Below, piece after piece: positions 29,711 to 56,713 of a DNA stretch of 64,000 bases. The notes beneath the pieces were generated by a model. That model had not been told where the DNA came from. It searched no databases and saw nothing but the letters and a program-made list of their open reading frames with translations. This DNA comes from Eledone cirrhosa (Eukaryota). The stretch's first letter is position 1; every line of letters begins with the position of its first letter. The position numbers were made by a program, and so were the translations under genes. The stretch spans positions 27,466,001 through 27,530,000 of the forward strand of contig OZ024762.1 in the NCBI GenBank assembly GCA_964016885.1. The letters are read 5' to 3'.

Positions 29711-29983
29711 AATATATATATATATTTATTAAAATATATATATATATATATAGGAAAATAGTCAGGACCCCGAGGGCTGAGCACCGGTCGATTCGACAGC
29801 TAGATCCGAACTAAGCCACTAATACTCTAACTATTGAGTTCTCTGGTGCGTTTTGGTCCACCTGGTATCTACCACACCCTCTTTATTTTATATATATATA
29901 TATATATATAAGTTTATCCCGGGTTAAGTCGGGGGTAACCACAGTAAGTATGGTACTCAATACATGGCAGAGTATAAATATTT

Positions 29984-30097
29984 AATATAGAAATGGCTTC
30001 TACAGGACTAGAACTGTTTCATTCGGGAGAAATCATCAGGAAGCCCTGATGATTTCTCCAGAATAAAACAGTAATAGTCCTGCAGAAGCCATTTCTG

Positions 30098-30101
<4 letters not shown>
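29984..30101. ncRNA. 118-bp palindrome of two back-to-back HHRs (intact on - strand 29995-30045; mutated on +)
   Basis: Minus strand: GGCTTC-CTGATGA-TTTC-TCCC-GAAT-GAAA-CAG-TTCTAGTC-CTG-TA-GAAGCC. Confidence 0.85.
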
Positions 30102-30196
<95 letters not shown>

Positions 30197-30203
30197 CATA
30201 TAC

Positions 30204-30270
<67 letters not shown>

Positions 30271-30293
30271 CATATACATATATATATATATAC

Positions 30294-30347
<54 letters not shown>

Positions 30348-30743
30348 ATATACATACATAGACACACACACACACCCACACCCACACACACCCACACACA
30401 CACACGGGCATACATATATATATGTATGTGTGTGTGTATGTGTATATAATCGGAAGTTAACACCGAATTACGTAGCTGACGCATCCACTAGGTACTGAAA
30501 TAAAATAATGAACCAAGAAGCAGGCAAGGAACATAATTATGGTTGAGCTGCTGCGCTGCTGCGCTGCTGCGGTAGTGAAGATCTGTGAGATTCATTAAAG
30601 CTTTTCAAAATTGTTGATTTAATTGCGAGTAATTACAAATTGGTGGCGGATTTCTTTAGAAACAGGAATCGAAAATCAGAAAGCAATCATGTAGACTCGT
30701 TATCACTGTCTTTGTTCCTACGGCTATACAGCTATAGCTATGG

Positions 30744-44667: not shown

Positions 44668-44907
44668 ATTGTTATACTTTGGGAGCGTCCTGTTGCCAAT
44701 AAAAACATACGCACCTGTGGTTTTCACTTCAATTTATTATAAATTTCCCAAAGTATAACAATATCTGTTTCAACATACGTACGTTTTCAGATAACAAATC
44801 TCGCAAATCAAACTAAAAAATAAATTATATATATATATAATTCATTTTTTAGTTTGATTTGCGAGATTTCTTATCTGAAAACGTATGTTGAAACAGATAT
44901 TGTTATA
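44668..44907. repeat. Terminal fragments of the 19515-20040 family forming a palindrome (44754-44907) centred on a (TA)n
   Basis: TATAACAATATCTGTTTCAACATACG ... CGTATGTTGAAACAGATATTGTTATA. Confidence 0.75.
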
Positions 44908-44976
44908 TATATATATATATATCCCGGCCCCTCAATCTTCCTTATTTCTCATTCTTTCTTCTGATGAAGGACGAGG

Positions 44977-45025
44977 GATTCCTGATGATTTCTAAAGAAT
45001 GAAACAGTTCTAGTCCTGTAGAATC
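44977..45025 (+). ncRNA. Canonical type I HHR (same family as 29995-30045)
   Basis: GATTC-CTGATGA-TTTC-TAAA-GAAT-GAAA-CAG-TTCTAGTC-CTG-TA-GAATC. Confidence 0.85.
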
Positions 45026-45038
45026 TCATCTATATTAA

Positions 45039-45088
<50 letters not shown>

Positions 45089-45214
45089 GTACATACATAA
45101 TATATATATATACACGCATACATGCATATATATATGTATATATATATATATATACGTACATAATATATATATATATATATATATTATGTATGTATGTACG
45201 TATATATATATATA

Positions 45215-56069: not shown

Positions 56070-56078
<9 letters not shown>

Positions 56079-56480
56079 ATATTAACTAAATGGAAACTAT
56101 ATTTATAAAACCATATTTATTCTATTATATATATTTCAAGGGTACCAAAACTTTGGTACGCTTTCATCAGATAAAATACAAAGTTTGTTTTATAAATTTT
56201 GACATAACCAAGAAAAAGATACCTTACCGGTCCAAGGAAAACTTGAACCGGTAAGGTATCTTTTTCTTGGTTATGTCAAAATTTATAAAACAAACTTTGT
56301 ATTTTATCTGATGAAAGCGTACCAAAGTTTTGGTACCCTTGAAATATATATAATAGAATAAATATGGTTTTATAAATATAGTTTCCATTTATTTAATATC
56401 ATTGTATATTATACTCCAGAAAAATATGTCGAGAAGTCTGAATCAGTTATAAACATTTATATTTGTTGAATTACCAACAA
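56070..56480. mobile_element. Near-perfect ~340-bp hairpin (56070-56231 / 56247-56408) of a pseudo-LTR with canonical HHR on both strands
   Basis: TATTTTAT-CTGATGA-AAGCGTACCAAA-GT-TTTGGTACCCTT-GAAA-TATATA-TA-ATAGAATA at 56300-56360 (+), mirrored at ~56118-56178 (-). (TA)n flanks. Confidence 0.92.
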
Positions 56481-56658: not shown

Positions 56659-56713
56659 AATTTACCAGTGGTTTCCTGAAAGCAAACAAAATTTGCTTTC
56701 AGTCATCAGAATG
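56659..56713 (-). ncRNA. Type I HHR (family of 34345-34398) in module 56562-56830
   Basis: CATT-CTGATGA-CTGAAAGCAAA-TTTTG-TTTGCTTTCAG-GAAA-CCACTGG-TA-AATT. Confidence 0.8.

Follow-up and report, generated by a model that had tools for sequence, protein, structure and literature searches.

The 64,000-nucleotide stretch of Eledone cirrhosa DNA analysed here (GenBank assembly GCA_964016885.1, contig OZ024762.1, positions 27,466,001 to 27,530,000; hereafter the window) contains at positions 29984-30101 a palindrome of 118 bp that is set in simple repeats and carries hammerhead ribozyme sequence, and further along it a second, solitary copy of the same motif (Table 1). The palindrome, already pointed out in a preliminary description of this DNA, is indeed present and near-perfect: compared with its own reverse strand the sequence gives a match of 86%, and its RNA is predicted to form a hairpin of ~56 bp with a folding energy of -83.0 kcal/mol for the minus strand (z -17.9 relative to shuffled sequences) and of -78.6 kcal/mol for the plus strand (z -16.3). 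The whole element spans about 29910-30101 and is asymmetric, with a tail on the left side only. This tail is delimited by an outer end point, ..GGGATAAACTT, which we term site 2, and an inner end point, ..CTATATTAAATA, termed site 1, and within it positions 29918-29933 form a small hairpin, which reads CCCG..CGGG on the minus strand.

Examination of the minus-strand arm (30045..29995) revealed all conserved hammerhead positions in place, in the type I topology and with a GUA cleavage site. This arm keeps a complete type I hammerhead motif, for which self-cleavage is predicted. The core C3 U4 G5 A6 N7 G8 A9...G12 A13 A14 is found both here and in the second copy at 44975-45027, and in both of these good copies the A15.1-U16.1 pair is part of ACAG...CUGU, followed by A as H17. 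As had been proposed, stem III is a helix of 4 bp with an 8-nt loop. Helix II is limited to 3 bp, and positions 10.1/11.1 form a U.U mismatch. The plus-strand arm is different: a G12>A change at 30065 (AAA for GAA) breaks the core order, U16.1 is replaced by C at 30083 (CTGC for CTGT), loop 3 is altered to TAATAGTC, and there is no partner strand for helix I. The 5' strand of helix I (30040-30045) doubles as the centre of the palindrome; since these six central nucleotides (GAAGCC on the plus strand, where the 5' and 3' strands of helix I both read GAAGCC) are not self-complementary, helix I is available to the minus-strand arm only. The earlier picture of two divergent hammerheads sharing their 5' stem I region is thus not borne out, and the locus is better described as one intact motif joined to one decayed copy.

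Table 1. Features of the two motif copies in the window (positions within the window) and of the full-length element (no positions, except for the reading frame at locus L124)
Feature	Positions	Strand	Sequence or remark
(AT)n target microsatellite, left flank	29890..29909		(TA)n lies around nearly all family copies
One-sided tail, 69 nt	29910-29978	minus	between the outer and inner end points
Segment between helix I and site 1	29979..29994	minus	ATTTCTATATTAAATA
Helix I, 3' strand	30000-29995	minus	GAAGCC
Predicted cleavage	between 30001 and 30000	minus
H17	30001	minus	A
Helix III and loop 3	30017-30002	minus	ACAG-TTCTAGTC-CTGT; as RNA ACAG-UUCUAGUC-CUGU
Core GAA	30020-30018	minus	GAA
Helix II and loop 2	30032-30021	minus	TTTC-TCCC-GAAT (UUUC-UCCC-GAAU)
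Core CTGATGA	30039-30033	minus	CTGATGA (CUGAUGA)
Helix I, 5' strand	30045-30040	minus	GGCTTC (GGCUUC)
Second, tail-less arm (decayed motif copy)	30046..30101	plus	ends ..ATTTCTGTATT at (TA)n
(TA)n / TATACA-type microsatellite, right flank	30100..30360
Single tail-less copy, subfamily B	44975..45041	plus	end point ..CTATATTAAAAC at 45041, then (TA)n
Helix I of the subfamily B copy	44975-44981 with 45021-45027	plus	GGGATTC/GAATCTC
Core of the subfamily B copy	44982-44988	plus	predicted cleavage after 45020
Full-length element, part 1			(TA)n, then ACCCAGATTC-hammerhead (ACCC-AGAUUC-hammerhead)
Full-length element, part 2			21 nt ending ..CUAUAUUAAAAC, end point 1
Full-length element, part 3			69-nt tail ending ..ACGUA, end point 2
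Full-length element, part 4			~45 nt, then ATG and an uninterrupted 713-codon frame
Full-length element, part 5			TG/TA-rich stretch, then 465-nt body (3' UTR)
Full-length element, part 6			second hammerhead, end point 1 ..CTATATTAAAAC, (TA)n
713-codon frame	L124:2665-4803	minus	no interruption

The second copy, at 44975-45027, shares an identical core and helix III with the minus-strand arm and has UAAA as its loop 2. Given the same core with the helix I listed in Table 1, the C-G to A-U change between the two copies is real, which upholds the earlier claim of a compensatory change in stem I; the two copies are, moreover, alike beyond the motif itself (..TCTATATTAAA..), so that their homology outside it stands. 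Neither degree of similarity is expected by chance: the window contains 9 instances of the pattern CTGATGA-N6-30-GAAA where 0.53 would be expected, and for the 23-mer common to both copies 0.00 occurrences are expected. A genome search with the second copy, a member of subfamily B, gave at least 713 candidates, many of them 100% identical over 69 nt. Among the 30 loci listed besides the window's own, 29 are either 100% identical (44974-45042) or 99% identical over a longer span, and the remaining one shows 91% identity. An exact 28-mer from the 52 nt that adjoin the 44975 copy on its left occurs nowhere else in the genome.

The genome searched (3.0 Gb in 1796 contigs) holds a very large family of such sequences. 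Using the 118-mer as the query we obtained at least 1971 first-look candidates, and the 40 that were scored have 88-95% identity. The two halves of the motif were searched separately as exact patterns, with pairing by coordinates and by eye; the 5' half recovered 20,548 matches and the 3' half 39,067, while the reversed-pattern control gave 0 in each case. An exact 26-mer from the tail has 13,123 copies. In the loci that we fetched from family A (the subfamily of the window palindrome) and family B, the ~69-nt tail is always single-sided and (TA)n is present on both sides; the hairpin at the tail end has the strands CCCG/CGGG in the former family and TCCG/CGGA in the latter. The tail-less arms of other copies stop at varying points within the ATTTCTATATTAAATA segment or CUAUAUUAAAAC. 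Besides the palindromes, the family includes solo arms and one tandem array with a unit of 78 bp. This satellite came to light through a 78-nt joint that "goes back", seen in contigs of four runs that carry no RNA-end or strand information. Across 53 of its monomers the core is no more conserved than the rest, as expected for an array maintained at the DNA level, and the fold of two real consecutive monomers, both of them mutated, yielded no helix III dimer (z -0.84).

To classify the copies we took the first 30 tail-bearing elements on one contig (C1), which were not selected for the hammerhead, and sorted them by eye. Eight are long copies that have in common, upstream of the hammerhead, as much as ~470 nt of a unique non-coding body, and in the longest three of them low-complexity sequence further upstream is shared as well; two of the eight (L061 and L075) have an inverted partner truncated at another point. 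A further 10 of the 30 have their start or head-to-head joint within about 13 nt upstream of CUGAUGA, with differing junctions, and the other 12 are cut within or after the motif. The orientation of the central loop differs between the subfamilies. In family A the helix I strand belongs to the tail-bearing arm in 16 of 28 copies and to the other arm in 12, whereas 35 of 36 tail-proximal arms of the B/C type are oriented alike (35 to 1). Subfamily B palindromes mostly have one and the same centre, CATCAGGAATCCCTGATG.

The source of these copies becomes apparent where the sequence continues past the tail. At two loci (L067 and L088) it runs on into the same reading frame, and a complete element of roughly 6 kb on C1 carries the same hammerhead sequence at both ends (parts 1 to 6 in Table 1). 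The long non-coding copies and the ORF-bearing copy are linked through the adjoining 4.9 kb. Terminal direct repeats (pLTR) with the hammerhead are accordingly present in the full-length C1 copy; in L067 the upstream repeat is longer. The product of the 713-codon frame displays the RT-type motifs LDIENYY, YRDDG and FLDV, which were read by eye, and ends in a cysteine-rich C-terminal part with a sub-threshold match to the GIY-YIG family of Pfam (E 0.018, 15.8 bits); RVT_1 was not matched in the same comparison. The protein has 1404 homologues at E<=1e-5; among the 120 listed, identities range from 38 to 54%, lengths are mostly similar and none bears a descriptive name. The nearest clusters in the ESM Atlas consist of animal proteins with HTH_animal, DUF8422, GIY-YIG and RVT_1 domains. 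A sequence search of the PDB with this ORF returned no meaningful match, and the cluster look-up no descriptive names. Endonuclease-positive Penelope-like elements (PLEs) are characterized by an RT with a C-terminal GIY-YIG domain, by hammerhead-bearing terminal repeats and by AT-rich targets. On this signature, that is the RT motifs, the sub-threshold GIY-YIG match, the Atlas neighbours and the overall architecture, the element would be classified as an endonuclease-positive PLE.

Insertions of endonuclease-positive PLEs reportedly contain a pLTR, an inverted 5'-truncated copy and a one-sided tail. The window palindrome likewise has an inverted 5'-truncated partner placed head to head and a tail on the left side only, both features of PLE insertions. 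We therefore favor the reading that the 118-bp palindrome represents two partial, head-to-head copies of a hammerhead-bearing PLE terminal repeat inserted within (TA)n, to which we assign a probability of roughly 0.8. The preliminary description of the locus as a minimal back-to-back double hammerhead is better replaced by this insertion structure, in which helix I is found in one arm per palindrome.

A mechanism for such insertions is suggested by the work of Frangieh et al. 2024 (PMC11167929) on a purified lizard (anole) PLE protein, which uses an AT-rich target whose two strands are both cut and extended. In that system two neighbouring internal sites, both downstream of the hammerhead, serve as starts for reverse transcription, and the tail corresponds to the sequence lying between them; the hammerhead is assisted by protein, and insertion in vitro does not require it (PMC11167929). 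The present family agrees with this picture in every respect, the left arm of the window palindrome, with its tail, ending at site 2 and the tail-less right arm at site 1. By analogy with this in vitro behavior, the protein of the present element would nick both strands of the AT-rich target, and each nicked 3' end would start cDNA synthesis at one of two internal sites. In the window copy, synthesis of the left arm would have begun at site 2, which would give this arm its tail, and that of the right arm at site 1; the two cDNAs would have extended to the RNA's 5' end, which would lie at the hammerhead's 5' edge, and would have been joined there, and the 6-nt "loop" would be the helix I strand kept by one of the two. 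Such priming of reverse transcription of the RNA leader by both nicked target strands is a likely route to the palindrome. Across the family, insertions end at site 1 or site 2, and many have their start no more than about 13 nt from the 5' edge of helix I; since the full-length copy and many solo copies open a few bases ahead of helix I, transcription may well begin at that point. The abundant stumps would then be run-off copies of the leader and not random truncations. Extended to the tiny palindromes as a class, which number in the tens of thousands, the proposal that they are run-off 5'-leader cDNAs made from both nicked strands and from two internal start sites is put forward tentatively, at odds somewhat short of even.

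The main competing account of the palindromes holds that tail plus palindrome form a short non-autonomous element, transcribed and copied as a whole by the PLE machinery. The subfamily B copies speak for it, being up to 100% identical over 69 nt: given their one shared centre, CATCAGGAATCCCTGATG in most cases, and the uniform orientation in 35 of 36 tail-proximal arms of the B/C type, copying of a ready-made palindrome fits them better than de novo joining. The contrast in orientation between family A and the B/C types thus leaves room for whole-palindrome copying in some cases. Against it as a general explanation are the differing junctions in twelve copies (L033, L045, L047, L051, L054, L060, L062, L066, L074, L076, L084 and L087), the variable end of the tail-less arm, and the occurrence of both loop orientations in family A (16 to 12); a transcript of both arms would, moreover, form the ~56-bp hairpin. 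We consider this account improbable, though well short of negligible, next to rebuilding of the palindrome at each insertion.

Three further candidates were considered for the origin of the palindrome and set aside. A single cDNA that snaps back would agree with the CAG/CTG microhomology found at the subfamily B centre but leaves unexplained the 12 of 28 family A copies whose helix I strand is in the tail-less arm. A tRNA-derived SINE was suggested by the tRNA-like head beside several copies, which belongs to a separate SINE with a (GAT)n tail. A Helitron, for which a 5' TC, an AT target and a 3' hairpin had been noted, was dropped after the RT frame and the long copies were found.

The other question concerns the hammerhead itself. 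We infer that it is the terminal-repeat ribozyme of the PLE and is under constraint in the source elements. To examine this constraint we used 42 distinct tail-proximal arms picked by a rule blind to pairing. Two helix I pairs in this family alignment change on both sides, pair 7-53 (AU 15, CG 12, UG 2) and pair 5-55 (GC 22, AU 8, GU 7), and the covariation score of 0.095 exceeds the 0.067 +/- 0.008 of shuffled alignments, 0 of 500 shuffles reaching it. Helix I covaries between the two copies of the window and across subfamilies, although only 2 of 7 pairs are changed on both sides and the changes go back to few subfamily-level events in related sequences. Helices II and III, being invariant in the 42 arms, yield no covariation. 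In the core, variants at the free position 7 number 2,884, and 80 of the 100 listed belong to one proliferating subfamily that has CUGAAGA with loop AUCU; the variants of A6 (1,289) and of G8 (928) are single mutants scattered over the subfamilies. Among positions 6, 7 and 8, which were those tested, the sole subfamily-level change in the core is thus at the free position. Loop 2 varies freely between subfamilies.

Several observations point to a ribozyme of limited strength. No hammerhead family was matched in Rfam, either over the whole window at the gathering score or at E<=10 on 29900-30200, 44900-45100 and five other loci of the family; the sub-threshold microRNA and AT-rich look-alikes that Rfam returned were dismissed as hairpin and low-complexity effects. 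A stable helix II closed by G10.1-C11.1 is absent, its place being taken by U10.1.U11.1 and three pairs (UUC/GAA) that are invariant across subfamilies. The isolated arm has a predicted fold of -10.7 kcal/mol, no better than its shuffles (z -0.27), and the minimum free energy structure of the 44974-45028 copy retains helix I and loses helices II and III. With helix II marginal as well, the earlier suggestion that the motif could cleave as a monomer looks doubtful. In a transcript through both arms the hairpin is predicted to be more stable than the isolated-arm fold by >70 kcal/mol. Finally, a genome-wide count of copies whose first base is that of the predicted 3' cleavage product, directly preceded by an AT-only 8-mer, gave only 23, so that cleaved RNA was rarely, if ever, the template for insertion. 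As loop 3 contains a palindromic CUAG (ACUAGU in the CUGAAGA subfamily), dimers are conceivable. A precedent is the axolotl hammerhead HHR_Amex2 (PMC7229834), which has a U.U at the base of helix II, cleaves 22% in 1 h and performs better as a dimer. Specific cleavage by a single arm under at least some condition is in our estimate slightly more likely than not; the hammerhead is probably weak or protein-assisted, and the insertion templates mostly uncut, as in the lizard system.

These same observations bear on the alternative that conservation of the motif reflects a signal role in RNA or DNA, for instance in protein binding, RT start or promoter function, and that its hammerhead appearance is a relic. 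Such a relic would no longer cut, or its cutting would be irrelevant to transposition. The invariance of helices II and III and of loop 3, in place of covariation, is as this alternative would have it, and so are the marginal helix II, the lack of an Rfam match, the isolated-arm fold that equals its shuffles and the scarcity of copies starting at the cleavage product (only 23). In the anole system, too, hammerhead mutants insert normally in vitro, and no RNA-seq reads end at the cut site (Frangieh et al. 2024, PMC11167929). It is countered by the retention of all 13 conserved hammerhead positions in subfamily after subfamily, by the restriction of subfamily-level core change to the free position 7 (of 6, 7 and 8), by the covariation of helix I, and by the U.U precedent in the cleaving HHR_Amex2 (PMC7229834). 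On balance we judge the relic alternative rather unlikely and prefer a constrained terminal-repeat ribozyme.

A functional back-to-back double hammerhead, with both strands transcribed and each arm cutting its own transcript, is far less probable still. Both arms are of common hammerhead descent, and in six of the copies (L033, L045, L047, L051, L054 and L060) an enlarged centre holds a helix I strand for both arms; in the window copy and most others, however, the 6-nt centre serves a single arm, and the plus-strand arm of the window carries G12>A and U16.1>C. Moreover, in any transcript through the palindrome the antisense arm would precede the ribozyme arm and would sequester it by pairing (-83 vs -10.7 kcal/mol), and the insertion mechanism already accounts for the palindrome. 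Least credible of all is a MITE of a DNA transposon, with TIRs, TA duplication and a chance hammerhead-like string, or its variant, a hairpin small-RNA gene: the palindrome is small and TA-flanked and resembles microRNA precursors in Rfam below threshold (mir-3199, 43.5 bits vs a gathering score of 100), but such matches lie far under threshold as for any long hairpin, the tail is asymmetric, centres and outer ends vary, the arms run on into an RT-encoding element of 6 kb, the family also has solo arms and a tandem array of 78-bp units, the motif shows covariation, and the family does not display the fixed TIRs, target-site duplication and freedom from RNA-copy signatures that define MITEs.

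Both the insertion architecture of PLEs and the hammerhead in their terminal repeats are already described, and the locus is an ordinary Penelope-like stump with a moderately unusual hammerhead. Taken singly it is of small importance, being one of thousands of PLE stumps that were dead on arrival. The junctions and end points of the family as a whole, on the other hand, provide in vivo support for the unusual insertion mechanism that a single in vitro system has suggested for PLEs. In its short helix II with U.U and its 4-bp helix III, the hammerhead is unlike the architecture published for animal PLEs, and the near absence of starts at the cleavage site is relevant to the purpose that hammerheads serve in these elements. 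If the run-off reading is true, the family would be a huge natural record of priming on both strands and of initiation at two sites, which so far have been observed only in vitro and for one lizard PLE; it would equally record a transcript start that coincides exactly with the hammerhead's 5' edge, and insertion templates uncut by the ribozyme. Judged from sequence, the family may represent a PLE lineage with a real helix III, in which action as a monomer would be possible, an architecture that may be undescribed for animal PLEs. Literature searches on octopus hammerheads and on Penelope-like hammerheads with a dimer or helix III found no account of this hammerhead family, and supplements may hold similar variants. 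For annotation pipelines, there is a practical consequence: elements of this kind would probably be misfiled as MITEs or microRNA-like hairpins.

The family can be compared with several groups of hammerhead-bearing repeats. It resembles the non-LTR retrozymes and hammerhead satellites (PMC7229834; 10.64898/2026.07.22.740005), which are type I hammerhead repeats related to PLE terminal repeats, in having one long tandem array of a 78-bp unit, and the U.U at the base of helix II is as in axolotl HHR_Amex2 (PMC7229834). Unlike the retrozymes described by Cervera and de la Pena 2020 and in the preprint of Li, Clavereau, Pollet 2026, the copies in the window are inverted or solo and not tandem. The retrozyme units given there are about 170-400 nt long and form circular RNAs, whereas the unit here measures 78 bp, is confined essentially to one locus and is known from DNA alone.

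The family also resembles insertions of endonuclease-positive PLEs. Craig et al. 2021 (PMC8557442) describe PLE insertions as 5'-truncated, often preceded by an inverted 5'-truncated copy and provided with a 30-40 bp tail at one end only, and they report a (TA)n preference for Naiad PLEs and the canonical PLE hammerhead in the pLTR. The present family shares with endonuclease-positive PLEs the AT-rich or (TA)n target, the head-to-head inverted partial copy and the extension at a single end; it further shares the hammerhead in a terminal repeat just upstream of the ORF start, the two end points downstream of that hammerhead and the putative RT frame with a GIY-YIG-like C-terminal part. It differs from the reports on such elements in its tail of 69 nt, as against the published 30-40 bp, and in the very large number of tiny insertions (about 120-190 bp) that stop at the 5' edge of the hammerhead.

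With respect to the ribozyme, the natural comparison is with the minimal hammerheads of metazoan PLEs as characterized by Cervera and de la Pena 2014 (PMC4209133). In common with these, the motif is of type I, resides in a PLE terminal repeat and lacks contacts between loops 1 and 2; it also has an unpaired nucleotide at the base of helix II, is present in tens of thousands of copies, and contains in loop 3 a palindromic element (CUAG) that makes dimers possible. The dimensions of the helices are different: according to PMC4209133, animal PLE hammerheads have 6-8 bp in helix II, 4-5 bp in helix I and almost no helix III, whereas this family has 3 bp and U.U in helix II, 6-8 bp in helix I and a helix III of 4 bp with an 8-nt loop. 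A large helix III is reported for fungal and protist PLE hammerheads and not for metazoan ones. The earlier remark that the motif is unlike typical minimal PLE hammerheads therefore stands for helix III as compared with the published metazoan forms; as a contrast with PLE hammerheads in general it is misplaced, since the motif is itself the hammerhead of a PLE terminal repeat.

Within the family palindrome, which of the two arms carries the 6-nt centre varies with the subfamily (loci L002-L030 versus L032-L090). Among copies of the window's own subfamily the centre lies in the tail-bearing arm in 16 cases and in the other arm in 12, as against a ratio of 35 to 1 in favor of the tail-bearing arm in the GAAUC subfamilies. 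This difference could reflect age, with a later inversion of the loop, a bias in joining, or the copying of whole units. To the left of the tail-less solo copy, 52 nt (window 44923-44974) separate it from a (TA)n run; this segment contains another CTGATGA, ends in ..GACGAG, and yielded an exact 28-mer with a single occurrence genome-wide. The segment may be ordinary flanking sequence or an inverted partner of the solo copy that has since decayed.

We recovered nine matches to the pattern CTGATGA-N6-30-GAAA in the window, versus 0.53 expected from shuffling. A second palindrome (see table) carries two outward-facing hammerhead-like motifs of a different family, at 56134-56170 (-) and 56308-56344 (+), each of which combines CUGAUGA, a long helix II and GAAA with UAUAUA at the position expected of helix III, and which have the look of the classical min-HHR.

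Features associated with the hammerhead family and its surroundings (window coordinates unless a locus or contig is named)
Feature	Location	Strand	Remarks
Second palindrome, ~340 bp	56073-56410		(TA)n at left flank; more (TA)n ~90 bp rightward
Third CUGAUGA...GAAA string, near second palindrome	56672-56709	-	
Four other CTGATGA-N6-30-GAAA matches	6274, 17591, 46176, 54067		
tRNA-derived SINE beside family copies	L021 1634-1960; also L025, L002, L018		
Long tandem array, 77-78-bp units	G000:C28:30497114 onward (L114-L122)		complete copy of family hammerhead in every unit

Several family copies are adjoined by a tRNA-derived SINE, ~330 nt long and ending in a (GAT)n tail, with just a short TA run between the two; this SINE is an abundant element separate from the hammerhead family. 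In the full-length element on contig C1, the 3' UTR includes ~3 kb of TG/TA-rich low-complexity sequence from the stop codon to the 465-nt body (L124/L125, G000:C1:14205800-14208960). At L065:953-1553 in two public contig sets (runs X1 and X2), for neither of which the library type is stated, the depth summed across the hammerhead plus its tail is roughly 20-100x that over the upstream body, a surplus in line with the excess of short stumps.

The family hammerhead also occurs in a tandem array on contig C28, which begins with an inverted tail-bearing copy adjoining (TA)n. Across the whole genome the junction between its units gave 1,661 forward matches and one reverse match, with 97 of the 100 matches listed lying on C28. 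Comparison of 53 monomers of this array revealed no extra conservation of the hammerhead core. Known retrozyme monomers measure ~170-400 nt, and the array's unit is much shorter than these.
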